64,000 nt of DNA from Escherichia coli (GCF_001677475.2 NZ_CP015229.1); one strand, 5' to 3'; counted from the stretch's first letter, positions 3,758 through 54,738 are shown. The notes: generated from the sequence alone by a model not told the origin. Numbers and translations: made by a program.

Positions 3758-4228
3758 TTAGCTTTTCTTCACATGCTGGCGCGCTGCCAGTCCACGCAGA
3801 AAATAACGTAAAAATTGATCGCCGCATTCGCGGAAGTTTTTATGATCCGGTGCGCGCATCATCGCCGTAATTTCCGGCATCGAAACGCGGAACTGCTGTT
3901 CGGTGAGGATCGCCAGAATGTCATCGGTTTTCAGCGAAAACGCGATGCGTAATTTTTTCAGCACGATGTTGTTATTAATGCGACGTTCCGGTTCCAGTGC
4001 CGGAGCAGACTCATCCTTGCCGCGTTTTTCATAAATCAGGCCATTGAGGAATGACGACAAAACAATGTCCGGACAACGCTGAAAACCCTCTTCGTCTTCT
4101 TTACGTAGCCAGACGGCGATCTGTTCCGCGGTGGCTTCGACATTACCCAGCGCCAGAATACGAACCAGGTCATTATTATTGGCTTTCAAAATGTAGCGCA
4201 CGCTGCGCAGAATATCGTTACTTAGCAT
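3758..4228 (-). CDS. yehS: DUF1456 protein YehS
   Basis: ORF-track 175 aa trimmed to internal ATG (MLSNDILRSV...) giving 156 aa. Confidence 0.8.
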   Translation of the reverse strand: MLSNDILRSVRYILKANNNDLVRILALGNVEATAEQIAVWLRKEDEEGFQRCPDIVLSSFLNGLIYEKRGKDESAPALEPERRINNNIVLKKLRIAFSLKTDDILAILTEQQFRVSMPEITAMMRAPDHKNFRECGDQFLRYFLRGLAARQHVKKS

Positions 4229-6897: not shown

Positions 6898-7629
6898 ATG
6901 GCGCTTTACACAATTGGTGAAGTGGCGTTGCTTTGTGATATTAACCCTGTCACGTTACGCGCGTGGCAGAGGCGTTACGGATTGCTGAAACCGCAACGGA
7001 CAGACGGCGGTCATCGGCTGTTCAACGATGCCGATATTGACCGTATCCGCGAGATCAAACGCTGGATCGACAACGGCGTGCAGGTCAGCAAAGTTAAAAT
7101 GCTGCTCAGTAATGAAAATGTTGATGTGCAGAACGGCTGGCGCGATCAGCAAGAAACATTACTGACCTACCTGCAAAGCGGCAATCTGCATAGCCTGCGA
7201 ACGTGGATCAAAGAGCGCGGTCAGGATTACCCCGCCCAGACACTCACCACACATCTGTTTATTCCTCTGCGCCGACGGCTTCAGTGCCAACAACCGACTC
7301 TCCAGGCGCTGCTGGCGATCCTCGACGGCGTACTGATCAACTACATCGCCATTTGTCTGGCTTCGGCACGTAAAAAACAGGGTAAAGATGCGCTGGTGGT
7401 TGGCTGGAATATTCAGGATACCACCCGTCTGTGGCTGGAGGGCTGGATTGCCAGTCAACAAGGATGGCGCATTGATGTCCTCGCCCACTCGCTCAATCAA
7501 CTACGCCCTGAACTATTCGAAGGCCGTACATTGCTGGTGTGGTGCGGTGAAAATCGAACCTCCGCCCAACAGCAGCAACTCACCAGTTGGCAAGAACAAG
7601 GCCATGATATTTTCCCACTCGGCATTTAA
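6898..7629 (+). CDS. mlrA: MerR-family transcriptional regulator MlrA (YehV)
   Basis: 243-aa product with N-terminal MerR HTH (MALYTIGEVALLCDINPVTLRAWQRRYGLL). Confidence 0.85.
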   Translation: MALYTIGEVALLCDINPVTLRAWQRRYGLLKPQRTDGGHRLFNDADIDRIREIKRWIDNGVQVSKVKMLLSNENVDVQNGWRDQQETLLTYLQSGNLHSLRTWIKERGQDYPAQTLTTHLFIPLRRRLQCQQPTLQALLAILDGVLINYIAICLASARKKQGKDALVVGWNIQDTTRLWLEGWIASQQGWRIDVLAHSLNQLRPELFEGRTLLVWCGENRTSAQQQQLTSWQEQGHDIFPLGI

Positions 7630-7688
7630 TGATTCGTTAACAAATGCGCTTTACTGTACAATCCTTTCGTTAACATAAGGAGTGCATT

Positions 7689-7796
7689 ATGCGCATAGCT
7701 AAAATTGGGGTCATCGCCCTGTTCCTGTTTATGGCGTTAGGCGGAATTGGTGGCGTCATGCTCGCAGGTTATACCTTTATTTTGCGTGCTGGCTAA
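7689..7796 (+). CDS. yohO: Small membrane protein YohO (35 aa)
   Basis: ATG preceded by TAAGGAG; encodes [35 protein letters not shown]; not in ORF track because shorter than its cutoff. Confidence 0.6.
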
Positions 7797-8508
7797 GCGC
7801 CTGCACCAGCCTTTCAAACAGGCGGTCTGCGATGATCGCCGCCAGTGCCACCAGTAACGCCCCCTGGATCACATACGCGGTATTAAATCCGCTAAGCCCG
7901 ATGATGATGGGCGTACCCAGCGTGCTGGCCCCTACCGTTGAGGCGATCGTCGCCGTACCAATGTTGATAATCACCGAAGTTCGCACGCCCGCCAGAATCA
8001 CCGGAGCCGCCAGCGGTAGCTCGACCTTACGCAGTCGCTGACCACGACTCATTCCCATACCTTTCGCAACTTCTGTCACGCTGGCATCAATCGCTCCCAG
8101 CCCGGCAAGTGTCGCCTGCAGGACGGGCAGCACACCATAAAGGATCAAGGCGATAATCGCTGGTTGCAGACCAAAGCCGATCACCGGAACAGCAATCGCC
8201 AGCACTGCGACAGGCGGAAAAGTCTGCCCAACGGCGGCAATAGTTTCCACCAGTGGGCGAAATTCCGCGCCCCACGGGCGAGTGACTGCAATTCCGGCAC
8301 CAGTGCCAATGATCACCGCAAACAAACTCGAAATTCCCACCAGCCAGAAATGAGCCAGTGCCAGAGCCGCAAAACTTTCTTGCTGATAAACGGGTCGTGG
8401 CAGTTGTGGGAACAAGGCAGCAAACAGCGGCTGGCTGTAAGGCAGCCAGAAAATCAGTGCCACAAACAAAGCAATGAGCCAGAACAGCGGATCGCGCAAC
8501 ATCTTCAT
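7777..8508 (-). CDS. yehW: Osmoprotectant ABC transporter permease YehW
   Basis: 243-aa polytopic permease, first gene after osmF-yehY-yehX in operon order. Confidence 0.85.
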
Positions 8509-9439: not shown

Positions 9440-10589
9440 TACGTTTCACCTTCAGCAGTGCGATAAGCAAATCGAACAGCGCGTCGGTAAGCACCGCCAG
9501 AACAATTACCGGGATCACCCCGAGCAACACTAAATCAATGGCGCTGCTTAGCAGCCCCTGGAAAACCAGCGCACCAAAACCGCCTGCGCCGATTAACGCC
9601 GCAATCACCGCCATACCTACAGTTTGCACCATCACCACCCGCAGGCTGCGCAGAAATACCGGTAACGCCAGTGGTAACTGAACATGCAGAAAACGCTGCG
9701 CCCCGCTCATGCCCATCACTCTGGCGCTCTCCAGCACATCGCGCGGGATCTGGTTCAAACCGACTACCACGCCGCGCACCAGCGGCAGCAAGGCATAGAG
9801 CACCAGCGCAATCAGTGCGGGTGTCATTCCGGTTCCTGCTATGCCGAGCTTCCCCAGCCACGGAAAGGCCGTAACCAGCGCGGCAAGCGGCGCAATCAAC
9901 AGGCCAAAGAGCGCCACCGAAGGCACGGTCTGAATGACATTGAGCAGAGAAAAAATCGCCCCCTGCCGCGCAGTGGAAAAGTAGCACCAGATGCCCAATG
10001 GCACACCAATCACTAACGCAGGCAGCACCGCACCAAACAGCAACGTCAGATGTTGCGCCAGCGCGTCGTCAAACACATCCTGACGGTTGACGTACTCTTT
10101 CATTAGCGAGAGATCGTTAAGCGCGCCGGAGTACAGCAACCACAGCGGAATGATGGCAATCTGCATATGCAACAACCAGCGCCACAGCGGATGCGTGGAG
10201 ATTCGGCGGATGGCATCACTACAGGCCAGCAATGCCAGCGCCATAGCCAACCAGAAACCACTGCCGAGGCTGGTACGCGCCAGCGCACTACCATTTTGCG
10301 CCAGTTGTGTCGCCGCCTTTCCAGCTCCCCACACCAGCAATACGAAGACGAATTGCGCCAGAATGAGTGCAAAAATGCTGCCTTTTTTAGCGGGAATAAA
10401 ACAGGCTGTCAGCCAGGCGCAACCAACGCCCACCAGCATCCAGATCGTTTGCGGCCACAGTTGCCAGAGATGACGCCCTTCACCCGAGACTAAACGATTA
10501 GGCGCGTAACTGATAAACGGCAGCGCCGCTGCGATTGCCGTCAGCAACAGCAGCAGCGCCAGAACAGGATTAATACGTAGATAAGTCAC
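9432..10589 (-). CDS. yehY: Osmoprotectant ABC transporter permease YehY
   Basis: 385-aa polytopic permease; GTG start at 10589; overlaps yehX start. Confidence 0.85.
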
Positions 10590-10595
10590 GGGAAA

Positions 10596-11513
10596 TTACT
10601 TCGTCCACCCTTTTTGTTTCAGGTAGTCGGCAGCCACTTTTTTGGCATCCAGTCCTTCCACTGCAATGCTGGCATTCAGTTGCTGCAATGTTTTTTCATC
10701 GAGGCTGGCGAAGACTGGCTGTAGCCACTGTGCCATTTGCGGATACTCCTTCAACACCGATTCACGCACCACTGGTGCAGGCGCGTAGATAGGTTGCACG
10801 CCTTGCGGATCGCTTAAGGTTTGCAGCCCCAGCGCCGCGACCGGACCGTCAGTGCCGTAAGCCATTGCGGCATTAACGCCAGAAGTTTGCTGGGCAGCGG
10901 CTTTAATCGTTACCGCCGTGTCGCCGCCAGCCAGTGACAGTAACTGATCCTGACCGAGCTTAAAGTCATAGGCTTTTTCAAAAGCGGGTAAGGCATCGGC
11001 GCGTTCGATAAACTCTGCCGAGGCTGCCAGTTTGAAGGTGCCGCCCTCTTTCAGATAACGACTCAGGTCGGCAAGCGAAGTGAGTTTGTTTTTCTCTGCC
11101 ACATCCTGACGCACGGCGATGGTCCAGGTGTTATTCGCAGGTGCGGGCGTCAGCCAGATTAACTTGTTTTGCTCTGCATCGAGTTTTTTGACTTTCTCGT
11201 AACCCTGTCCGGCATTTTTCCACGCTGCATCGTTTTCATCTTTAAAGAAGAAAGCGCCATTGCCGGTATATTCCGGATAGATATCCAGTTCACCGGAAGT
11301 AATCGCTCCGCGAACCACAGGAGTCGTTCCGAGTTGCACTTTATTGACCGTCGGTACGCCGTGGCTTTCGAGTACCTGCAAGATGATGTTGCCGAGTAGC
11401 GCGCCTTCGGTATCGATTTTTGAACCGACTTTAACGGGGGAAGCCGCGTGCAGCGGCAGGCTCACGGCTGCCAACAAAACCAGTGAACCTGCCCAGACCT
11501 TTGAGAGTGGCAT
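10596..11513 (-). CDS. osmF: Periplasmic glycine betaine-binding protein OsmF (YehZ)
   Basis: 305 aa with signal peptide, substrate-binding fold, first gene of yehZYXW operon. Confidence 0.85.
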   Translation of the reverse strand: MPLSKVWAGSLVLLAAVSLPLHAASPVKVGSKIDTEGALLGNIILQVLESHGVPTVNKVQLGTTPVVRGAITSGELDIYPEYTGNGAFFFKDENDAAWKNAGQGYEKVKKLDAEQNKLIWLTPAPANNTWTIAVRQDVAEKNKLTSLADLSRYLKEGGTFKLAASAEFIERADALPAFEKAYDFKLGQDQLLSLAGGDTAVTIKAAAQQTSGVNAAMAYGTDGPVAALGLQTLSDPQGVQPIYAPAPVVRESVLKEYPQMAQWLQPVFASLDEKTLQQLNASIAVEGLDAKKVAADYLKQKGWTK

Positions 11514-11641
11514 GATGCTTTCCTCATTCTTTTACTGTTGTTTTCAGCGAATTAAGAGAAAAGCATAGTTGATAATGGCGGGGTTAGCCTGACTGGGCGG
11601 ATTCAGTTGCAGAATCAGATAAATACTTAAGAGGCATATTC

Positions 11642-11692
11642 GGTCCGGCCTTTCCTGCCGGATGCGGCGCGAGCGCCTTATCCGGCCTACAA
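11642..11692. repeat. REP (repetitive extragenic palindrome) element
   Basis: gccggatgcggcgcgagcgccttatccggcctac matches E. coli REP consensus in osmF-bglX intergenic region. Confidence 0.6.
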
Positions 11693-43097: not shown

Positions 43098-44147
43098 ATG
43101 ACGAATATCACCTTACAGAAACAACATCGTACACTGTGGCATTTTATTCCGGGGTTAGCCCTGAGTGCAGTTATCACCGGGGTCGCCCTGTGGGGTGGTT
43201 CCATTCCCGCGGTTGCGGGTGCCGGGTTTAGTGCCCTCACCCTCGCAATCTTGTTGGGGATGGTTTTAGGCAACACCATCTATCCGCACATCTGGAAAAG
43301 CTGTGACGGTGGTGTGCTGTTTGCCAAGCAATATTTATTACGTCTGGGTATCATTCTTTATGGCTTCCGTCTGACGTTCTCGCAAATTGCCGATGTCGGT
43401 ATCAGTGGGATCATCATTGACGTGCTGACGCTGTCCAGTACCTTCCTGCTGGCTTGCTTCCTGGGGCAGAAAGTGTTTGGTCTGGATAAGCACACCAGCT
43501 GGTTGATCGGTGCCGGTAGCAGTATCTGTGGCGCTGCCGCGGTACTGGCGACTGAGCCGGTAGTGAAAGCGGAAGCCAGTAAAGTAACCGTGGCTGTTGC
43601 AACCGTTGTTATCTTCGGGACCGTCGCGATTTTCCTCTACCCGGCGATATATCCGCTGATGTCTCAATGGTTTAGTCCGGAAACTTTCGGTATCTACATT
43701 GGTTCTACTGTGCACGAAGTGGCGCAGGTGGTGGCGGCAGGTCATGCCATCAGCCCGGATGCAGAAAACGCAGCAGTTATTTCCAAAATGCTGCGCGTGA
43801 TGATGCTGGCTCCGTTCCTCATCCTGCTGGCGGCGCGTGTTAAACAGCTGTCTGGGGCGAACAGCGGCGAGAAAAGCAAAATCACTATTCCGTGGTTTGC
43901 CATCTTGTTCATCGTAGTTGCCATCTTTAACTCGTTCCACCTGTTACCGCAGAGTGTGGTGAACATGCTGGTAACGCTGGATACCTTCCTGCTGGCAATG
44001 GCGATGGCGGCGCTGGGTCTGACCACTCACGTCAGCGCGCTGAAAAAAGCCGGGGCGAAACCTCTGCTGATGGCACTGGTACTGTTTGCCTGGCTGATTG
44101 TTGGTGGTGGTGCGATTAACTATGTGATTCAAAGCGTCATCGCATAA
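43098..44147 (+). CDS. yeiH: Inner membrane protein YeiH (UPF0324)
   Basis: 349-aa polytopic membrane protein. Confidence 0.85.
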
Positions 44148-44220
44148 ACCACTACATCTTGCTCCTGTTAACCCGCTATCATTACCGTTTTCCTCCAGCG
44201 GGTTTAACAGGAGTCCTCGC

Positions 44221-45078
44221 ATGAAATACATTGGAGCGCACGTTAGTGCTGCTGGCGGTCTGGCAAATGCCGCAATTCGCGCCGCCGAAATCGACGCAAC
44301 CGCGTTTGCCTTGTTCACCAAAAACCAACGTCAGTGGCGTGCCGCACCGCTCACGACGCAAACCATCGATGAATTCAAAGCCGCCTGTGAAAAATATCAC
44401 TACACATCGGCGCAAATTCTTCCCCACGACAGTTATCTGATTAACCTCGGACATCCGGTCACTGAAGCTCTGGAAAAATCGCGCGATGCCTTTATAGATG
44501 AAATGCAGCGTTGCGAACAGCTGGGGCTTTCTTTGCTCAACTTCCACCCTGGCAGCCATCTGATGCAGATTTCAGAAGAGGATTGCCTTGCGCGTATTGC
44601 CGAATCCATCAACATTGCGCTGGATAAAACTCAAGGTGTAACAGCGGTGATTGAAAACACCGCCGGTCAGGGCAGCAATTTAGGGTTTAAATTCGAACAT
44701 CTCGCGGCGATTATCGATGGCGTGGAAGATAAATCCCGCGTCGGCGTCTGCATTGATACCTGCCATGCTTTCGCTGCCGGGTATGATTTGCGTACTCCAG
44801 CCGAATGCGAGAAAACGTTCGCTGATTTTGCCCGTATTGTTGGCTTTAAGTATCTGCGTGGGATGCACCTTAACGATGCGAAAAGCACCTTTGGCAGCCG
44901 CGTTGACCGCCATCATAGCCTCGGTGAAGGCAATATCGGTCATGATGCGTTCCGCTGGATCATGCAAGACGACCGTTTCGACGGCATTCCGCTGATCCTT
45001 GAAACCATCAACCCGGATATCTGGGCAGAAGAGATCGCCTGGCTGAAAGCGCAACAAACTGAAAAAGCGGTAGCCTGA
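44221..45078 (+). CDS. nfo: Endonuclease IV (AP endonuclease)
   Basis: 285 aa, Nfo family TIM barrel. Confidence 0.9.
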
Positions 45079-45080
45079 AG

Positions 45081-46169
45081 ATGAATAACCGGGAAAAGGA
45101 GATCCTTGCAATTTTACGGCGTAACCCGCTGATTCAGCAGAACGAAATTGCGGACATGCTGCAAATCAGTCGTTCGCGCGTTGCGGCGCATATTATGGAT
45201 TTAATGCGTAAAGGGCGGATTAAAGGCAAAGGTTACATTCTCACTGAGCAGGAATACTGCGTAGTGGTGGGGACAATCAATATGGATATTCGCGGGATGG
45301 CGGATATCCGTTACCCGCAAGCGGCTTCTCATCCCGGAACAATTCATTGCTCGGCGGGCGGCGTTGGACGCAATATCGCCCACAATCTGGCGCTGTTAGG
45401 CCGCGACGTCCATTTGCTTTCAGTGATTGGCGATGACTTTTATGGCGAAATGCTCCTGGAAGAAACGCGCCGTGCCGGCGTGAATGTCTCCGGCTGCGTT
45501 CGTTTACATGGCCGAAGCACATCGACGTATCTGGCAATTGCCAATCGAGACGATGAAACCGTGCTGGCGATTAACGATACCCATCTGCTGGAACAGTTAT
45601 CGCCGCAATTATTGAACGGGTCGCGCGATTTACTTCGTCATGCGGGCGTGGTACTGGCTGATTGCAACCTGACAGCCGAGGCGCTGGAGTGGGTCTTTAC
45701 CCTCGCTGATGAAATCCCGGTGTTTGTCGATACCGTTTCAGAATTCAAAGCGGGCAAAATCAAACACTGGCTGGCGCATATTCACACCCTGAAACCCACT
45801 TTACCGGAGCTGGAAATTATATGGGGACAGGCGATCACCAGCGATGCTGACCGTAATGCCGCAGTGAATGCATTGCATCAGCAAGGTGTTCAGCATCTGT
45901 TTGTTTATTTGCCCGATGAGTCAGTTTATTGCAGCGAAAAGGATGGAGAACAATTTTTGCTGACCGCGCCAGCGCATACGACAGTAGACAGTTTTGGTGC
46001 TGACGATGGTTTTATGGCGGGCCTGGTATATAGCTTTCTGGAGGGAAACAATTTCCGTGACAGCGCCCGTTTTGCGATGGCCTGCGCGGCAATTTCACGC
46101 GCCAGCGGCAGCTTAAACAACCCTACCCTGTCTGCCGATAACGCGCTTTCATTAGTGCCAATGGTGTAA
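45081..46169 (+). CDS. yeiI: PfkB-family sugar kinase with N-terminal HTH, YeiI
   Basis: 362 aa; N-terminal winged-helix region then ribokinase-like domain; paralogous to psuK. Confidence 0.8.
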   Translation: MNNREKEILAILRRNPLIQQNEIADMLQISRSRVAAHIMDLMRKGRIKGKGYILTEQEYCVVVGTINMDIRGMADIRYPQAASHPGTIHCSAGGVGRNIAHNLALLGRDVHLLSVIGDDFYGEMLLEETRRAGVNVSGCVRLHGRSTSTYLAIANRDDETVLAINDTHLLEQLSPQLLNGSRDLLRHAGVVLADCNLTAEALEWVFTLADEIPVFVDTVSEFKAGKIKHWLAHIHTLKPTLPELEIIWGQAITSDADRNAAVNALHQQGVQHLFVYLPDESVYCSEKDGEQFLLTAPAHTTVDSFGADDGFMAGLVYSFLEGNNFRDSARFAMACAAISRASGSLNNPTLSADNALSLVPMV

Positions 46170-46172
46170 CAA

Positions 46173-46215
46173 TGTTGCCGGATTCGACGCTTGACCGCAT
46201 CTTATCCGGCTCATA
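46173..46215. repeat. REP-like element
   Basis: tgccggattcgacgcttgaccgcatcttatccggc. Confidence 0.45.
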
Positions 46216-46224
46216 AATCGCGCA

Positions 46225-47475
46225 CTACGCTAAGCCAATAAAGAATCCTGCAATGGTGGCACTCATCAGGTTAGAAAGTGTCGCCGCCGCCAGCGCGCGT
46301 AAACCAAGCTGGGCGATTTCCGGCGCACGGTGTGGCGCAACCGCAGAAAACGCCCCCACCACCACCCCGATAGAACCAAAGTTAGCGAAACCGCACAACG
46401 CGAAGGAAATAATCGCCACGGTTTTAGCATCCAGAGTGCAAGCCGTTTGCAGATAGGGTGAGAAATTGAGATAAGCGACAAATTCATTTATTGCCAGTTT
46501 CTGTCCAATCAAACTCCCGGCAAGATTCGCATCACTCCAGTCAACACCCATCACCCACGCTAGTGGGGCCAGCAGGTAACCTAAAATGGACTCCAGCGAG
46601 GCATGTTCAAAACCAAACCAGCCGCCAACGCCGCCGATAATACCGTTAATTAACGCAATGATAGCGACAAATGCCATCACCACTGTCGCCACACCTGCGG
46701 CGATTTTCAGCCCGGTCATTGCCCCTGTCGCAGCGGCTTCAATAATGCTTTTTGGCGGTGTTTCGGTGAAAGAGAGGTTATTAAAGGAAACCTGCGAAGA
46801 TTCCGTTGCCGGGCTTAACAGGCGGGCAAACAAGATCCCGCCGGGGATCGCCATTAACGATGCCGCCAGCAGATATTCCACAGGCACGCCCAGTGCGGCG
46901 TAACCAATCATTGTCGAACCAGCAATCGAGGCCATCCCGCTACAAATCGCTGTAAATAGTTCATTGCGATTCAGACGATCGATAAAGGGTTTGACGATTG
47001 CCGGAATTTCGTTTTGCCCGAGGAAAATGGTAGTGACCGCGACGAATGACTCAATCTTGCTGATATTTAATGCTTTCTGGAATATACCGCCGAGAATGCG
47101 AATTAAGATCCCCATCACACCGATGTAGTAGAGAATACTCACCAGTGCTGTAACGAAGATAATTGCCGGTAATACCCTGAAGCCAAAGATAAATCCTGCG
47201 CCATCAAATAAGGTGTCCATTTTCGGTCCGACCAGAGAACCGAAGATAAAAGCGCTACCTGCATCGCTGTACGCCATCACTTTATGCACGCCAAAAGCGA
47301 CTTTTTCAGCGACCCAACGCCCTGGAGGTAACCAAAGCATAATCCCGCCAATCACGACCTGTAATACCAGCGCCGCACCGACAGTACGCAGGCTGATCTT
47401 CTTCTTGTTTACTGACAGTAAAAATGCAATTGCCAGCAGTACCACCATTCCCAGAACACTTCTCATGACATCCAT
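46225..47475 (-). CDS. nupX: Nucleoside permease NupX (CNT family)
   Basis: 416-aa concentrative nucleoside transporter; very similar to psuT. Confidence 0.85.
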   Translation of the reverse strand: MDVMRSVLGMVVLLAIAFLLSVNKKKISLRTVGAALVLQVVIGGIMLWLPPGRWVAEKVAFGVHKVMAYSDAGSAFIFGSLVGPKMDTLFDGAGFIFGFRVLPAIIFVTALVSILYYIGVMGILIRILGGIFQKALNISKIESFVAVTTIFLGQNEIPAIVKPFIDRLNRNELFTAICSGMASIAGSTMIGYAALGVPVEYLLAASLMAIPGGILFARLLSPATESSQVSFNNLSFTETPPKSIIEAAATGAMTGLKIAAGVATVVMAFVAIIALINGIIGGVGGWFGFEHASLESILGYLLAPLAWVMGVDWSDANLAGSLIGQKLAINEFVAYLNFSPYLQTACTLDAKTVAIISFALCGFANFGSIGVVVGAFSAVAPHRAPEIAQLGLRALAAATLSNLMSATIAGFFIGLA

Positions 47476-47574
47476 AGTTATTATCTCTTCATGTCATTTT
47501 GGGCGACGGCTTTCTGCCCATCAGAAATAGCCGGGCCTGCATCTTGCGATACTGACCCGGCTTGTTATCAACAC

Positions 47575-48516
47575 TTAATGGGTTTTGATATAGCCGCGCA
47601 CGCACTCTTCGACTAATCCCCAGAACCAGTCGGTATCAATAGTGATGCCGACTTTGGTATTAGCGGGCTTGCCAAGAACGCCCAGCTCGTCGCAGACAGT
47701 ACGCCCATAGCAAGGTCCACTGTTGACGTCCACTTCGACGTACATCTCCTGGGTTTTAATGCCATCAGGGTTAATCAGATAACCGATGCAGGTGGCGTCA
47801 TGCACCGGGCCGCCAGCCAGGCCGTAGTTTTCGAACTGGGTTTTGAGAGTGAAGTTCATGATGTCGCTGAACAGCTCTCCGGCAGGGCCGCCTGCCCTTT
47901 CCATTCGTGCAATCACGTCCGGGGTGCAAACGGTCTGGTTGGTGAGATCGAGGCCCATCATTACTAATGGAACGCCGGAGGTGAACACCACACGTGCCGC
48001 TTCCGGGTCAGCAAAGATGTTGAACTCGGCAGATGGGGTGAAGTTGCCAGTACCGTAAGCGCCGCCCATTAGCACTATTTCACGGATTTTCGGCAGGATT
48101 GCTGGTTGCATACGCATTGCCACCGCGATATTTGAAAGCGGACCAACCGGCACCAAAGTGATATCGCCATCGCTTGCCATCAGGGTATCAATGATATATT
48201 TCACCGCATGAGTGCTTTCTGCCTGGCGGGTCAGCGGCTCGAATACCGGGCCATCCAGTCCGGTTTCACCGTGAATATTATCGGCAACGATTTGTTGCCG
48301 CATAATGGGCTGTGGCATCCCCGCATAAACCGGAACATTAATCTCCAGTTTCTGGCAAACATTCAGACCATTAATTAATGTTTTATCGAGGGTTTGATTA
48401 CCCGCTACAATGGTGATACCTAATAAATCAATCGCCGGATGTTTCGCTGCCATCATCATTGCAATAGCATCATCATGACCCGGATCACAATCCAGAATAA
48501 TTTTTCTCTTTTCCAT
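47575..48516 (-). CDS. rihB: Pyrimidine-specific ribonucleoside hydrolase RihB
   Basis: 313 aa with N-terminal [11 protein letters not shown]-nucleoside hydrolase motif. Confidence 0.9.
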
Positions 48517-48684
48517 TGTTTATTTCCTCTGTTTCCAGTTGCGTTATTTTTTCTACAGCAAAGAAAATTCGACCGGGCCGATGATTGAATCTTAACAACA
48601 GCGTACGTATGCTAAATATGAGAAATCTCATAGCGGATAAACATCGTGAAAGAAATCCACAATAATGATCTTAAGCAGCAATTG

Positions 48685-49344
48685 ATGAGTGAATCCGCGT
48701 TTAAGGATTGCTTTTCAACGGATATTTCAGCCGATACGCGGCTGTTTCATTTTTTAGCGCGTGACTACATTGTGCAGGAAGGGCAACAGCCATCCTGGCT
48801 GTTTTACTTGACGCGAGGCCGCGCCAGGCTTTACGCCACGCTTGCTAATGGTCGCGTGTCGCTGATCGATTTCTTTGCCGCGCCCTGTTTTATTGGCGAG
48901 ATTGAGTTAATCGATAAAGACCATGAACCGCGTGCGGTGCAGGCTATTGAAGAGTGTTGGTGTCTTGCGCTCCCTATGAAACATTACCGCCCGCTGTTAT
49001 TAAACGACACGCTATTTTTACGAAAACTCTGCGTCACCTTAAGTCATAAAAATTACCGTAATATTGTTTCTTTAACTCAGAATCAATCATTTCCGTTAGT
49101 GAATCGCCTGGCAGCTTTTATATTACTCTCGCAGGAGGGTGATCTTTATCACGAAAAACATACCCAGGCAGCAGAGTATTTAGGTGTTACTTATCGTCAC
49201 TTGCTATATGTGATCGCTCAACTCATTCACGACGGTTTATTAATTAAAAGTAAGAAAGGGTATTTAATTAAAAACAGAAAGCAGTTGTCAGGACTGGCGC
49301 TGGAGATGGACCCGGAGAATAAATTCTCCGGGATGATGCAGTAA
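48685..49344 (+). CDS. yeiL: CRP/FNR-family regulator YeiL
   Basis: 219 aa from ATG 48685 (ORF track begins at in-frame GTG 48646); cNMP-binding-like domain plus C-terminal HTH. Confidence 0.7.
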
Positions 49345-49361
49345 AAAATAATCTGCAATAG

Positions 49362-49405
49362 CGCGATTGCCGGATGCAACGCTTAATAAGGCGTACATCC
49401 GGCAA
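49362..49405. repeat. REP-like element
   Basis: gccggatgcaacgcttaataaggcgtacatccggca. Confidence 0.45.
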
Positions 49406-49411
49406 TGAAAC

Positions 49412-50662
49412 TCAAGCTAAACCAATAAAGAACCCGGCGATGGTCGCGCTCATCAGGTTGGAAAGCGTTGCTGCTGCCAGCGCCCGTAAACCAAGCTGGG
49501 CGATTTCCGGCGCGCGTTTTGGCGAAATAGCCGAAAATGCGCCAACGACAACACCGATAGAACCAAAGTTAGCAAAACCACAAAGCGCAAAGGAGATAAT
49601 CGCCACGGTTTTCACTTCCAGCGTGCCGCCCGTTTGCAGGTATGGGGAGAAACTCAGGTAAGCGACGAATTCGTTAATCGCCAGTTTCTGCCCAATCAGG
49701 CTACCCGCAAGGTTGGCATCACTCCAGTCCACGCCCATAATCCACGCCAGCGGTGCCAGCACATAGCCAAAAATACTTTCCAGAGAGGCATTGGCGAAAC
49801 CAAACCAGCCGCCAATTCCGCCGATAATGCCGTTGATCAGCGCAATAATTGCGACAAACGCCATTACCACCGTCGCCACACCGGCGGCGATTTTCAACCC
49901 GGTCATCGCACCGCTCGCCGCTGCTTCGATAAAGCTTTTTGGCGGCGTTTCGCTGAACGACAGATTTTCAAATGTCACCTGCGAAGGCTCGGTTGCCGGG
50001 CTAAGAATACGTGCAAACAAAATACCGCCAGGGATCGCCATCAGCGATGCCGCTAACAGGTAGTCAATTGGTACGCCCATTCCGGCATAACCAATCATCA
50101 TCGAACCAGCAATGGACGCCATCCCGCTACAAATTGCGGTAAACAACTCGTTGCGATTCATACGTTCGATAAACGGTTTAACGATCGCAGGGATCTCATT
50201 TTGCCCGAGGAAAATAGTAGTAACCGCAACAAAAGATTCGATTTTGCTGATGTTGAGGGCTTTCTGGAAAATGCTGCCAAGGATGCGAATCAGCAGCCCC
50301 ATCACGCCAATGTAGTACAGCAGACTGATGAGCGCAGTAACGAAAATAATCGCCGGAAGTACGCGAAAGGCGAAGATAAAACCCGCACCGTCAAACAGGA
50401 CATCCATTTTCGGCCCAACCAGCGAACCAAAAATGAAGGCGCTACCGGCATCACTGTAAGACATCACTTTATGAACGCCTAATGCCGCCTGTTCTACTGC
50501 CCATTTTCCCGGTGGGAAGTAGAGCATGATGCCACCAATAGCGATTTGCAGCAGCAGTGCGGCTCCAACCGTGCGCAAACTGATGCCCTTTTTATTCACT
50601 GACAACAGAAATGCTATTGCCAGTAACACCACCATCCCCACAACACTTCTCATTATATCCAT
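49412..50662 (-). CDS. psuT: Putative pseudouridine/nucleoside transporter PsuT (YeiM), CNT family
   Basis: 416 aa, paralog of nupX, last gene of psuKGT. Confidence 0.85.
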   Translation of the reverse strand: MDIMRSVVGMVVLLAIAFLLSVNKKGISLRTVGAALLLQIAIGGIMLYFPPGKWAVEQAALGVHKVMSYSDAGSAFIFGSLVGPKMDVLFDGAGFIFAFRVLPAIIFVTALISLLYYIGVMGLLIRILGSIFQKALNISKIESFVAVTTIFLGQNEIPAIVKPFIERMNRNELFTAICSGMASIAGSMMIGYAGMGVPIDYLLAASLMAIPGGILFARILSPATEPSQVTFENLSFSETPPKSFIEAAASGAMTGLKIAAGVATVVMAFVAIIALINGIIGGIGGWFGFANASLESIFGYVLAPLAWIMGVDWSDANLAGSLIGQKLAINEFVAYLSFSPYLQTGGTLEVKTVAIISFALCGFANFGSIGVVVGAFSAISPKRAPEIAQLGLRALAAATLSNLMSATIAGFFIGLA

Positions 50663-50755
50663 AATGATTTTCCCTTCATGCCAGTAAACCCGGCGGCAGC
50701 GCCAGGTTTTGGTATGTTTGATGAGTACGGGCGACGGCTTTCTGCCCGTCAGAAA

Positions 50756-51694
50756 TTAACCCGCGAGACGCTGGTATTCTTTGGCAATTTCACTCGCCAG
50801 AATGGCGTTGTTGAACACCAGTTGGATGTTGGATTTCAGGCTGTCACCGCCGGTCAGTTCAGCAACGCGCGCCAGCAGGAATGGCGTACTTTCTTTACCA
50901 ATAACACCCTGCGCTTCAGCTTCAGCTACCGCCTGATCGATCGCCGCATTGATAGTGTGTTCCGGCATAGCAAACTGTTCCGGGATCGGGTTCGCTACCA
51001 CGAGGCCACCGTTCAGCCCGCTTTGCCATTTCACCGCCATTGCACGGGCAATTTCGCTGGCGCTGTCGAGACGAATGCTGACGTCAAACGGGCTGGTGCG
51101 GCAGAAAAACGCAGGCAGCGCTTTTGTCTGATAGCCAATTAACGGCACACCAAAGGTTTCTAAATACTCAGTGGTTAATCCTAAATCGAGAATAGATTTC
51201 GCCCCGGCACAAACAACGGTGACATTAGTATTTGCCAGTTCTTGCAAATCGGCAGAAATATCGAAGGTATGTTCCGCCCCGCGATGCACACCACCAATTC
51301 CCCCGGTGGCAAATACTTTAATTCCGGCAAGCGCCGCAATAATCATCGTTGAAGCCACAGTGGTTGCGCCATTTTTTCCGGCGGCAACAACAAAAGGTAA
51401 ATCGCGACGACTAACTTTGGTCACGTTATGCCCTTCACGACCCAGTAATTCAATTTCTTCTTTGCTTAAACCCACTTTCATCACGCCGCCAATAATGGCG
51501 ATAGTGGCAGGTACTGCGCCCTGTTTACGAATAGTTTCTTCTACTTCAATTGCGGTCTTGGCATTTTGTGGGAACGGCATCCCGTGAGAAATAATGGTTG
51601 ATTCCAGCGCCACAACCGGTTTTTTGTTTTTTAAAGCGTCCTGCACTTCCGGGGAAATTTGTAATAATTCAGGGGAAATTTTTAATTCAGACAT
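50756..51694 (-). CDS. psuG: Pseudouridine-5'-phosphate glycosidase PsuG (YeiN)
   Basis: 312 aa, indigoidine synthase A-like family. Confidence 0.9.
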   Translation of the reverse strand: MSELKISPELLQISPEVQDALKNKKPVVALESTIISHGMPFPQNAKTAIEVEETIRKQGAVPATIAIIGGVMKVGLSKEEIELLGREGHNVTKVSRRDLPFVVAAGKNGATTVASTMIIAALAGIKVFATGGIGGVHRGAEHTFDISADLQELANTNVTVVCAGAKSILDLGLTTEYLETFGVPLIGYQTKALPAFFCRTSPFDVSIRLDSASEIARAMAVKWQSGLNGGLVVANPIPEQFAMPEHTINAAIDQAVAEAEAQGVIGKESTPFLLARVAELTGGDSLKSNIQLVFNNAILASEIAKEYQRLAG

Positions 51695-52623
51695 TCTGCG
51701 TTCTCCACTAACGATATAACGTTGGCAATCGATAAATCGGGGTTATTGGTGTATTCACAGGAGAGCGCCATTGACGAACATCCCTGTGCGAAACGAACAG
51801 ATTCGGCAAACGGCATTCCGTCTACCCAACACGAAGCAAGTCCCGCCATCATGGCATCGCCCGCTCCGGTAACATTAATAACATTGGTTTTGATCGGGGC
51901 AGACCAGCCACTTTCACCGCTGATATCACTGTAATAAACGCCATCGCCGCCCATGCTCAATACCAGTCGGTTCAGGCCATGTTGATGGAACCAGGCAGCA
52001 ACTTTTGCCACATCTTCACGCCCTGACAGCGCAATCCCACTCAGGGTTTCCGCTTCAAGGCGGTTTGGCTTCAGAGTGTGGATCTGATTTAGACGGTCGC
52101 GCACTTTGACACATTTCCACGCTGAAACCGGATCGACAAATACGGGTACGTTGGCGGCATTATCCAGAATCCATGCCAGTGCCTCTTCACTGATATTACA
52201 GTCCGCGACAATGACCTTTGCCCTCTGAATAAATTCACGGTGCTGTGCGAGATATTCAGCTGTAATAGCGTTGCTAATATTCATGTCATTTATAGCAACC
52301 AGCATTTCACCGGTATTATCGAGTAATGATAAATAACTCGACGTATTTTCTCCCGGCACAATCAGGCATTTATCGACATAAACGCCAGATTGATTGGTTT
52401 GCGTTAGCAGCGATTGACCATAAAAATCACTGCCTACGGCGCTCAGTAGCCAGGCTTTGTTACCCAGCAACGCCAGGTTTTGTGCAATATTGCGCCCTAC
52501 TCCACCAGGCGTAAATTTTATTTTACCTGGATTTGAATCCGCATAATTTAATGATTCATGTGAATATCCGGCGACATCAATATTCGCCGAACCTATAATT
52601 ACGACATAATCCTTTTCGCGCAT
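51682..52623 (-). CDS. psuK: Pseudouridine kinase PsuK (YeiC), PfkB family
   Basis: 313 aa with ribokinase-type GAGD motif; stop overlaps psuG start by 13 nt. Confidence 0.85.
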   Translation of the reverse strand: MREKDYVVIIGSANIDVAGYSHESLNYADSNPGKIKFTPGGVGRNIAQNLALLGNKAWLLSAVGSDFYGQSLLTQTNQSGVYVDKCLIVPGENTSSYLSLLDNTGEMLVAINDMNISNAITAEYLAQHREFIQRAKVIVADCNISEEALAWILDNAANVPVFVDPVSAWKCVKVRDRLNQIHTLKPNRLEAETLSGIALSGREDVAKVAAWFHQHGLNRLVLSMGGDGVYYSDISGESGWSAPIKTNVINVTGAGDAMMAGLASCWVDGMPFAESVRFAQGCSSMALSCEYTNNPDLSIANVISLVENAECLN

Positions 52624-52861
52624 AGCACGTCCTCTGGTAAAAAATTACCAACCCTGTCAATCCACAAGAATATAGATACTGCAAAGACGGTTTAAACATG
52701 TGTTCATATTTAAACATGTGCTCATAGTATGCATGTTTTACGTAAAGTAAATTACCGCCAGAGAGGCAAAATGGGCAGATTTGAGCAGGCTCACAAAATG
52801 CGATTAAATGCCTGAATTACAAAAGCGAGGAATTTGTGACGGGATGCACAGAACATGAACA

Positions 52862-52892
52862 CTAAAAAAGGGCAGAAAATAATCTGCCCTTG
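52862..52892 (-). terminator. Intrinsic terminator on minus strand about 155 nt downstream of fruA
   Basis: Minus strand reads agggcaga-ttatttt-ctgccct followed by TTTTTT. Confidence 0.5.
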
Positions 52893-53046
52893 AGGAAATA
52901 ACCTTAGTGTTTGATGAACGTTTCAGGTTTCTACTGAAAGATAAAACCATTTAAATTCATAAAATTACATTCACAAACCGGTCATTCTCTTTGCGCTCAT
53001 CCAATGATACAGGGCAGGAAATTTCTGCCCTGTAACACACCTTTTA

Positions 53047-54738
53047 TTACGCTGCTTTCGCTACTGCGTCCACTTCCGGACGTTTCAGGAAGGCATAGGC
53101 CAAACCCGCCACCAGCGTACCGGCAATAATTGCTACCAGGTAACCCAGTACCGGCGTAATGGCGCCTGGGATCAGCAGAACAAACAGACCACCGTGTGGT
53201 GCCATCAGTTTCGCACCAATCGCCATTGAGATTGCACCAGTCAGCGCCCCACCCACGATACAGCACGGCAGCACTCGCATCGGATCACGGGCGGCAAACG
53301 GAATTGCACCTTCCGAAATAAAGCACAGACCAAGAACCAGAGCGGCTTTGCCACCTTCCTGCTGCGCTTTGTCGAATTTGCGACGCGCCACCATTGTTGC
53401 CAGGCCCATTGCCAGCGGTGGCACCATACCTGCCGCCATAATCGCCGCCATCGGGCCATAGGTTTGAGTACTCAGCAGACCCACACCGAACGCGTACGCT
53501 GCTTTGTTTACCGGACCGCCCATGTCAGTACACATCATGCCACCGAGGATCGCCCCCAGCAGAACCGCATTCGCAGTCCCCATGGTCTGCAGCCAGTGAG
53601 TCAACCCTTCGAGAATGCCAGCAACCGGTTTACCGATCAGGTAGATCATCGCCAGACCGACCACCAGACTGGAAATTAGCGGAATGATCAGGATCGGTTT
53701 CAGCGCCTCCATACTCTGTGGCAGTTTCAGTTGCGTACTGATTAACTTCGCAATGTAACCAGCCAGGAAGCCCGCAATAATACCGCCAATGAAGCCAGAA
53801 CCGGTGCTGACAGCCAGCATACCGCCAATCAGACCCGGCGTGAGGCCCGGACGATCGGCAATGGAGAAGGCAATATAACCTGCCAGTACCGGCACCATCA
53901 GCGCAAAGGCTGAACCACCACCAATCTGCATCAGCGCCGCTGCCAACGTACCCGGCTCTTTAAACGCTTCGATACCAAAAGCAAAAGAAAGCGCGATACA
54001 CAGACCACCTGCAACGACCATCGGCAGCATGTAAGAAACGCCCGTCAGCAAGTGACGGTAAGCGCCCGCACTCTCTTTCTTACCTTCAGTAGTCGCCGTT
54101 TGAGCTTTGCCCGCCGGTTCATACGGCGTTGCTTCAGCAACCGCTTTATCCAGTTCCTGCGCGGTTTTCTTCAGCGCCAGACCGGTAGAGGTGCGATACA
54201 TCGGTTTACCAGCAAATTTCGCCAGATCCACTTCAATATCTGCCGCCACAATCACCAGATCCGCTGCGGCTACTTCTTCGGGAGTGATTGCATTACCCGC
54301 GCCAACAGAACCACGGGTTTCAACTTTCACCCACCAGCCACGTTTTTTCGCTTCGGTTTCAATGGCTTCAGCCGCCATAAAGGTGTGTGCTACGCCAGTC
54401 GGGCAAGCAGTCACCGCAACTACGCGTTTCGGACCGCTGGCGGCAACCGGTGCTGTCGCAGCGACCGGCGCAGTGTAAGGTTTCGCATGGCCTTTGGCTT
54501 CACTCAGGAACAGCTCAGGGTGCGCAACTGCCCGGGAAATATCGCCCAGCCAGACATTTTTACCGTTCAGCGCGCTGTCGTTCGGGATGGAGTCACCGAG
54601 AACAATCGCCATTTCAGCGTCGTTCGGATTGTCGATGATTTCCAGTTTTGCTTTTCGCGCCGCCGCGCCCAGCAGGGTCTTCGCCATATAGGCGCGTGCC
54701 TGACCGAGATTAGCGTCAATAATCAGCAGCGTTTTCAT
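53047..54738 (-). CDS. fruA: PTS fructose-specific EIIB'BC component FruA
   Basis: 563 aa with duplicated IIB domains and a IIC membrane domain. Confidence 0.9.
   Translation of the reverse strand: MKTLLIIDANLGQARAYMAKTLLGAAARKAKLEIIDNPNDAEMAIVLGDSIPNDSALNGKNVWLGDISRAVAHPELFLSEAKGHAKPYTAPVAATAPVAASGPKRVVAVTACPTGVAHTFMAAEAIETEAKKRGWWVKVETRGSVGAGNAITPEEVAAADLVIVAADIEVDLAKFAGKPMYRTSTGLALKKTAQELDKAVAEATPYEPAGKAQTATTEGKKESAGAYRHLLTGVSYMLPMVVAGGLCIALSFAFGIEAFKEPGTLAAALMQIGGGSAFALMVPVLAGYIAFSIADRPGLTPGLIGGMLAVSTGSGFIGGIIAGFLAGYIAKLISTQLKLPQSMEALKPILIIPLISSLVVGLAMIYLIGKPVAGILEGLTHWLQTMGTANAVLLGAILGGMMCTDMGGPVNKAAYAFGVGLLSTQTYGPMAAIMAAGMVPPLAMGLATMVARRKFDKAQQEGGKAALVLGLCFISEGAIPFAARDPMRVLPCCIVGGALTGAISMAIGAKLMAPHGGLFVLLIPGAITPVLGYLVAIIAGTLVAGLAYAFLKRPEVDAVAKAA

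Follow-up and report, generated by a model that had tools for sequence, protein, structure and literature searches.

The fruA-nfo locus of Escherichia coli probably comprises two nucleoside-catabolism units, each with its own CNT transporter paralog

We analyzed a 64,000-nt stretch of the Escherichia coli genome GCF_001677475.2 (NZ_CP015229.1), here called the window and numbered from its first letter, with a focus on two paralogous CNT-family transporter genes, nupX and psuT, that lie among nucleoside-catabolism genes between fruA and nfo. Open reading frame (ORF) listing recovered seven ORFs exactly at the coordinates given by a first-pass annotation of this DNA, bounded by yeiH-nfo and, at the opposite end, by fruA, and the same gene names and order were found in the RefSeq annotation of matching complete E. 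coli genomes. Our results make it highly probable that this locus consists of two distinct units, each with its own CNT gene, that the two CNT genes stem from an ancient duplication, and that they occasionally recombine.

The arrangement of the genes suggests two transcription units on the minus strand, psuK-psuG-psuT and rihB-nupX. In the first, psuK (51682-52623) encodes a PfkB-family pseudouridine kinase that has no helix-turn-helix (HTH) domain (NF007355, 716 against a cut-off of 540), psuG (50756-51694) encodes an IndA-like pseudouridine-5'-phosphate glycosidase (Indigoidine_A, E = 3e-132), and the distal gene psuT (49412-50662) encodes a 416-aa CNT-family transporter. PsuK and PsuG together convert pseudouridine to uracil and ribose-5-phosphate (PMC9247573, PMC9061257). 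The second unit would combine rihB (47575-48516), encoding a pyrimidine-specific ribonucleoside hydrolase (NF007417, 728 against a cut-off of 459) that hydrolyses cytidine and uridine (PMC10526354), with the distal gene nupX (46225-47475), encoding another 416-aa CNT-family nucleoside transporter. PsuG and RihB, the enzymes that adjoin the transporters, have unrelated folds according to Pfam. On the plus strand, yeiL (48646-49344), divergent from rihB, encodes a CRP/FNR-family regulator (NF007707), and yeiI (45081-46169), convergent to nupX and starting 2 nt past the nfo stop codon, encodes a PsuK paralog with an N-terminal winged HTH (wHTH) followed by a PfkB domain.

Both transporters matched the Pfam domains Nucleos_tra2_N, Gate and Nucleos_tra2_C in that order (E = 1e-15 to 1e-72), as do the CNT-family proteins NupC, vcCNT and CNTnw, and both exceeded the NCBIfam cut-off of 442 bits for TIGR00804 (NupX, 499.7 bits; PsuT, 517.1 bits). 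They have been assigned to the CNT group that includes vcCNT; NupX showed weak, low-efficiency uptake of uridine and cytidine, no uptake of uridine, cytidine or xanthosine was detected for PsuT, whose role in pseudouridine transport was deduced from its operon context, and gemcitabine transport was not shown for the Citrobacter freundii homolog CfPsuT (PMC11241209). In E. coli K-12, genes b2160-b2166, that is, yeiI-nupX(yeiJ)-rihB(yeiK)-yeiL-psuT(yeiM)-psuG(yeiN)-psuK(yeiC), have the same order, orientation and products as in the window, and their proteins passed the same NCBIfam models.

To define the relationship between the two transporter genes, we compared them at the DNA and protein levels. 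Both are 1251 nt long and align without gaps over their full length, with 981 of 1251 nt identical (78.4%), and their products share 367 of 416 residues (88%; BLASTP E = 0). The N-termini read MDVMRSV and MDIMRSV, the final 35 residues are identical, and the longest shared run is 35 residues in the protein and 29 nt in the DNA (gene positions 1150-1178). Nucleotide identity is ~70% at the start of the gene and increases toward the 3' end, where it reaches ~85%; third codon positions account for 203 of the 270 differences. Synonymous divergence (dS) is saturated at 1.46, compared with 1.22 between psuT of E. coli and Citrobacter, while nonsynonymous divergence (dN) is 0.076, giving a dN/dS of 0.05. 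nupX and psuT are thus old paralogs, both under strong purifying selection.

The two genes form direct repeats with a period of 3187 bp, and their homology extends beyond the coding sequences into a 28-nt leader element upstream and a repetitive extragenic palindrome (REP) downstream. The repeated unit is therefore the leader, the CNT gene and the REP, ~1.4 kb in total; past these elements, no DNA homology was found between the two copies. The first-pass annotation had described near-identical, collinear 416-aa paralogs with shared termini, each followed by a REP, and this description holds. It had also spoken of highly similar DNA and proposed a nucleotide comparison; the DNA proved to be homologous throughout both genes, but "highly similar" overstates an identity of 78% with a longest exact tract of 29 nt.

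The leader elements are located on the minus strand at 47501-47528 for nupX and at 50729-50756 for psuT; the psuT element starts on the final base of the psuG stop codon and forms the 5' boundary of repeat copy 2. They are identical at 27 of 28 nt; the nupX copy has the core GGGCAGAAAGCCGTCGCCC and is hairpin-capable. Both contain a motif, GGGCAG-nnn-GCnGTCGCCC (47501-47519 and 50729-50747), whose core GGCAGnnnGCnGTCGCC occurs exactly twice in the window. Across the comparative loci, this core was found 25-70 nt upstream of the CNT gene in all 25 loci of the NupX/PsuT clade that matched the pattern, and in none of 75 other fetched loci, which were mostly distant CNT homologs. The motif can form a 5-bp stem closing a conserved 11-nt loop (YGGGC-AGnnnGCnGUC-GCCCR). 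Two compensatory pairs were found in the YGGGC/GCCCR stem, and 32 of 500 shuffles reached the same covariation score, a statistically weak signal. An alternative hairpin, TTTCTG/CAGAAA, was rejected since only 64% of its cells pair across genera and it shows no covariation.

The leaders as a whole are predicted to be structured: the nupX leader folds at -42.1 kcal/mol (z = -4.3), and the psuT leader has a z of -3.0. Between rihB and the nupX leader, a G+C-rich hairpin follows the rihB stop codon (47530-47561, minus strand; GCCGGG...CCCGGC then UAUUUCU) and looks like a terminator or attenuator. The psuT leader contains a second hairpin (50689-50706, minus strand; CCUGGCG-CUGC-CGCCGGG then UUUAC), which may likewise have a regulatory function and lies within a 41-nt stretch of psuT-type leaders that is missing from the nupX leader. 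An Rfam scan of 44-54 kb (E <= 1) placed no known RNA family over the leaders, and promoter and terminator consensus scans, with matches at or below shuffle expectation, were uninformative. The same Rfam scan yielded a DapZ match in the psuK-fruA intergenic region (52963-53040, plus strand), which scored 25.6 bits against a gathering threshold of 56 (E = 0.49) and is probably due to chance.

At the other end of the repeats, the REP-type palindromes at 46177-46210 and 49369-49403 form the 3' ends of repeat copies 1 and 2, and each is located between convergent stop codons, those of nupX and yeiI and those of psuT and yeiL, respectively. They are imperfect palindromes of ~35 nt, lie outside genes at 3' ends and occur in multiple copies, as REPs do. 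The type GCCGGAT...ATCCGGC matched three times in the window, against zero expected by chance, the third and canonical copy being at 11657-11686. By eye, the REP at 46177-46210 resembles, with few mismatches, the one in the psuT-yeiI spacer of E. albertii.

Several features of the 3' ends point to exchange between the paralogs. In K-12, nupX carries psuT states at 9 of the last 13 informative sites. The junction of stop codon and REP (the last two codons plus the REP) occurs in two forms, ...GGTTTAGCTTGAGTnTCATTGCC... and ...GCGTARTGCnCGATTT..., and nupX and psuT carry these forms the opposite way round in the window and in K-12; a further 51-nt REP follows nupX in K-12 but not in the window. 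The swap and the extra REP together point to REP turnover, gene conversion between paralogs, or both. A psuT remnant in C. portucalensis is 96.5% identical to the 3' end of the nupX gene of the same genome. From these comparisons, short gene-conversion tracts appear to have been exchanged at the 3' ends of nupX and psuT.

The first-pass annotation had also suggested that the two copies, on opposite sides of rihB-yeiL, could serve as a substrate for homologous recombination. To search for products of such an event, we constructed a synthetic chimera query, in which the 3' end of yeiI was followed by one half of each CNT gene (3' for nupX, then 5' for psuT) and by the 3' end of psuG and which intact genomes match only at two separate places, and used it against 5,426 complete E. 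coli genomes. The query matched in one place in 7 of these, two of which (including TOK-001) were IS1-associated rearrangements. The remaining five, from Laos, South Korea, the USA, Mali and a mink in China, contained yeiI, a single 416-codon CNT gene, psuG and psuK, and lacked rihB and yeiL; the strains concerned are EH10-18-47, SY019, CFSAN004176, E203449 and 11PC. As a cross-check, exactly five records fell in the band of 80-90% identity to nupX.

We mapped the crossovers using 160 sites diagnostic between nupX (8 alleles) and psuT (10 alleles). In four of the single CNT genes, a psuT 5' part is joined to a nupX 3' part with one main switch each, at gene positions 753-792, 924-960, 960-1035 and 1083-1089, and one of them has an added short psuT-state patch at 1119-1122. 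In the fifth, from E. coli 11PC, the switch seems by eye to lie within the last ~50 nt. All crossovers thus lie within the 3'-terminal 40% of the gene, where the paralogs are more alike. Because the crossover points differ among the five genomes, as do their YeiI protein accessions, at least five independent deletion events must have occurred. A similar gene exists in another genus: in the sole CNT gene of C. werkmanii, the 5' part is 89-97% identical to a Citrobacter psuT, and the remainder, starting near position 750, matches Citrobacter nupX at 91-94% identity. The suggested recombination has therefore left natural products, five hybrids in E. coli with rihB-yeiL deleted and one in C. werkmanii.

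To place these genes in a broader context, we gathered loci by protein-guided retrieval, so that the following distributions apply among the matches listed, and built trees from protein sequences and from codon positions 1+2. E. coli NupX grouped with the rihB-linked CNT of Superficieibacter (bootstrap 91-93 in both data types), and PsuT with the psuKG-linked CNTs of E. albertii and Citrobacter (bootstrap 81-90). A 23-sequence tree, used for its topology only, recovered the same two clades, each across several genera. The phylogeny that had been proposed as a check thus separates rihB-linked from psuKG-linked transporters across Enterobacteriaceae.

The synteny of these loci was equally structured. 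A psu-only state, fruA-psuK-psuG-CNT-yeiI-nfo, was observed in E. albertii, three Citrobacter species and a Leclercia metagenome-assembled genome, and a rih-only state, fruA-...-yeiL-rihB-CNT-nfo, in C. portucalensis, L. adecarboxylata, Salmonella and one Logan assembly; in Superficieibacter, yeiL-rihB-CNT is located at a different genomic position. Some rih-only loci retain traces of the other unit. In C. portucalensis, a CNT 3' fragment (residues 329-415; 3846-4106 of its locus) lies directly beside the yeiL stop codon, and three yeiI pseudogene pieces lie between nupX and nfo (7307-7951 of its locus), while L. adecarboxylata has kept yeiI remnants beside nupX. Because of these psuT and yeiI remnants, the rih-only loci of both species would derive from a combined locus like that of E. 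coli, and the C. portucalensis locus appears to be a combined locus that has decayed and whose paralog ends have been locally homogenised.

One alternative is that the combined locus is young. In this scenario, psuKGT-yeiI is ancestral, a circular yeiL-rihB-nupX molecule entered the E. coli lineage horizontally and integrated in a Campbell-type manner, by one crossover within or near the 3' end of psuT, and the present hybrid deletions are the reverse of that integration. E. albertii, the closest relative sampled, lacks yeiL-rihB-nupX, and the nupX-REP-yeiI junction of E. coli resembles the psuT-REP-yeiI junction of E. albertii; moreover, Superficieibacter carries yeiL-rihB-CNT in another context, and an insertion sequence (IS)-flanked yeiL-psuT-psuG-psuK segment on IncHI1A plasmids implies that the region can be mobilised. 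However, C. portucalensis has the arrangement psuT'-yeiL-rihB-nupX-yeiI(pseudogene) at the same fruA-nfo locus, L. adecarboxylata has yeiI remnants next to nupX, C. werkmanii has its own psuT/nupX hybrid, branching within both the NupX clade and the PsuT clade is roughly that of the genera, and no plasmid carrying rihB-nupX was found. The E. albertii state can also be read as a deletion with an extreme 3' crossover, as in E. coli 11PC. We therefore regard recent acquisition as unlikely, and an insertion of the cassette specific to E. coli was downgraded on the remnants and the hybrid in Citrobacter and Leclercia.

The reading we prefer is that of an old locus with two units. Judging from the present distribution of intact and decayed genes, Escherichia, Citrobacter and Leclercia most likely diverged after both the CNT duplication and the formation of the combined locus. 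nupX and psuT would descend from an ancient duplication of the leader, the CNT gene and probably the REP, at least as old as the Escherichia-Citrobacter split. The psuK-psuG-psuT unit, with yeiI as a long-standing neighbour, would take up pseudouridine, phosphorylate it and cleave its C-glycoside bond, and the other unit would bring together the regulator YeiL, the cytidine/uridine hydrolase RihB and the weak uridine/cytidine transporter NupX. NupX and PsuT would accordingly have diverged in specificity to serve two catabolic routes.

A different account of the layout was given by the first-pass annotation, in which a single duplication of a kinase-plus-CNT cassette gave rise to yeiI-nupX and psuK-(psuG)-psuT, with rihB-yeiL and psuG inserted later. 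Part of this account stands. The members of each gene pair are true paralogs. YeiI and PsuK belong to the PfkB family, with Pfam matches far beyond chance (PF00294; YeiI residues 58-348, E = 4e-68; PsuK residues 5-295, E = 9e-70), and they are paralogs within the pseudouridine-kinase branch of that family, in which PsuK is the nearest characterised relative of YeiI (PMC9061257). Genomes of the Yersinia and Serratia type, with one wHTH-kinase beside psuG and one CNT gene, also imply that a two-gene ancestor existed.

The divergence of the two gene pairs is not comparable, however. YeiI and PsuK are 39% identical (307 aligned residues), and the two transporters 88%. Orthologs in E. coli and Citrobacter have diverged by 16-20% for the kinases and by 6% for the CNT proteins, so the kinases evolve about three times faster, and from these rates kinase copies of the same age as the CNT duplication would be expected to be ~60-65% identical, not 39%. 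This rate argument is crude, and it alone bears on the timing, because a tree built to date the kinase duplication did not separate the deep nodes (support 32-43), which leaves the cassette model some room. Order and orientation are not conserved either: yeiI is convergent to nupX, whereas psuK and psuT are transcribed in the same direction with psuG intervening. The confinement of DNA homology to the leader, CNT gene and REP, the linkage of nupX to rihB-yeiL in six genera and the position of yeiI 2 nt after nfo further argue against a duplicated cassette, which we consider very unlikely. In other genera, psuK-psuG-psuT has yeiI as its neighbour where no intact rihB-nupX is present, and loci with rihB-nupX can lack an intact yeiI. 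Each natural module thus pairs catabolic enzyme(s) with a transporter, and the two are organized as different operons rather than as two kinase-transporter cassettes.

Least credible of all is that the five single-transporter genomes are assembly or annotation artefacts created by collapsed repeats: three of the five are chromosome-level whole-genome shotgun assemblies (CM accessions), but two are finished CP genomes, assemblers do not collapse repeats with 22% divergence, the hybrids switch cleanly and only once, each at its own site within an intact 416-codon ORF, and an analogous hybrid exists in C. werkmanii.

In the two-unit reading, the hybrids would arise by occasional unequal homologous recombination between the 1.4-kb direct repeats (78% identical, 3187 bp apart), leaving one hybrid gene with a psuT 5' part and a nupX 3' part and removing rihB-yeiL; this interval is deletable because nupX and psuT retain residual DNA similarity. 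Recombination of the RecA type would be a plausible mechanism. Comparable events, in which direct repeats give an in-frame chimera and the interval is lost, are found in rrn operons, tuf genes and the Lepore-type fusions of globin genes. The nupX/psuT pair resembles these systems in its independent recurrence at different crossovers and in gene conversion at one end, but unlike them its substrates are only 78% identical with a longest exact match of 29 nt, close to the minimal length for RecA-dependent exchange, which would explain why the deletions are rare (5 of 5,426).

Several considerations weigh against the interpretation as a whole. Recombination is expected to be strongly suppressed at 22% divergence, and a RecA-independent route is possible; moreover, five deletions in 5,426 genomes are uninformative on rate versus selection. 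Co-transcription of rihB-nupX and of nfo-yeiI was deduced from spacing only. The trees are neighbor-joining trees of 13-23 taxa, and those built from all nucleotide sites lost resolution through synonymous saturation, which is why we relied on protein and codon-position-1+2 trees. The loci sampled exclude E. fergusonii, E. marmotae and most Salmonella, and the age assigned to the combined locus depends on remnants from two genera, which could also be explained by horizontal transfer of the whole locus.

The genes, their families and the paralogy of NupX and PsuT are already known from E. coli annotation and the literature, and the hybrids and the history of the combined locus are incremental additions, for neither of which a report was found in a limited full-text literature search. 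The analysis corrects the modular reading of the region to two catabolic operons, each with its own transporter paralog. It also provides a clean natural example, with mapped crossovers, of how repeats with no more than 78% identity can repeatedly undergo deletion and gene conversion, and the in-frame chimeric transporters that result could be tested for substrate specificity. The fruA-nfo locus is fluid, with nupX inactivated in ~18% of complete E. coli genomes, deeply diverged psuT alleles and a plasmid copy of psu genes, which is relevant to metabolic models, pseudouridine-production strains and typing schemes that use these genes.

We also observed other forms of gene loss at the locus. 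A nupX match of >80% identity was missing in ~986 of 5,430 E. coli records, so nupX appears to be dispensable in a large part of the species. In strain 20AR0479 (NZ_CP195410.1), an internal 1,135-bp deletion (window 46274-47408) has removed all of nupX but ~67 nt at the 5' end and 49 nt at the 3' end. In NZ_CP180694.1, a 5.7-kb deletion (window 45987-51726) whose ends fall within yeiI and psuK produces an extended psuK ORF, and NZ_AP018395.1 shows an IS1-associated loss of the nupX 5' end and rihB.

Variation in the psu genes included both plasmid copies and deep alleles. The IncHI1A plasmid NZ_CP063342.1 and five similar large E. coli plasmids carry yeiL-psuT-psuG-psuK beside an ISVsa5 transposase, and the proteins of this segment are the same as those of a divergent chromosomal allele class (strain MS1665). 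A plasmid origin of yeiL-rihB-nupX was considered and rejected, the search having returned no true plasmid with rihB-nupX and, as its top matches, chromosomes mislabelled as plasmids. Within E. coli, psuT alleles are as low as 88.6% identical at the DNA level (dS 0.56); one class groups with E. albertii, and one psuT (locus L014) looks recombinant between two allele classes. The deep alleles may reflect introgression or ancient polymorphism.

The window does not represent a standard strain: its DNA identity to K-12 and to the best-matching complete E. coli genomes is only ~95-97%. The best match among the 5,426 genomes was 97.6% identical at this region (window 44000-54000) and 97.3% identical over an unrelated 20-kb stretch (window 10000-30000). 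The window therefore derives from a divergent E. coli-like lineage beyond sampled E. coli diversity, possibly a cryptic Escherichia clade.

Finally, we compared YeiI with PsuK and related kinases. YeiI passed its own NCBIfam model NF007416 (809 against 561) and failed the pseudouridine-kinase equivalog NF007355 (257 against 540 bits), so it should not be filed as a pseudouridine kinase. The GAGD motif, which contains the catalytic Asp256, is present in PsuK and in all Yersinia-type homologs, while 10 of 10 YeiI-clade sequences have GADD or GADE; in the GADD of YeiI, the Asp is kept and Gly255 is replaced. Of the residues listed as contacting pseudouridine in EcPsuK, namely N14, D16, G41, N45, Y97, M114, N143, V166, S167, K170 and D256 (PMC9247573), YeiI keeps 10 of 11 by hand mapping on the BLASTP alignment, with M114 replaced by T, which suggests a ligand similar to that of PsuK.

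Proteins that join a wHTH to a PfkB domain are widespread in Gammaproteobacteria. Those of Yersinia, Serratia, Photorhabdus and Pasteurella share the N-terminal wHTH and domain order of YeiI, and Yersinia, Serratia and Photorhabdus have a single wHTH-PsuK-like protein. The Yersinia-type kinase domains keep GAGD and are 57-61% identical to E. coli PsuK, which has lost the HTH domain present in these proteins, whereas YeiI is 42-47% identical to them. This raises the possibility, which we put forward tentatively and consider doubtful, that an ancestral wHTH-PsuK was split in the Escherichia-Citrobacter group into the kinase PsuK and a regulator, YeiI, that would sense pseudouridine or a modified nucleoside and control both transporter operons, with the leader hairpin YGGGC-AGnnnGCnGUC-GCCCR as a second, previously undescribed control element. 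Among the wHTH-kinases, the one from a locus labelled Klebsiella sp. BIGb0407 has the same N-terminus, MFKNKQVSNMTSREKQILQLLRRDP, as a Serratia protein and groups with Serratia, so that this locus or the genome label looks Serratia-like.

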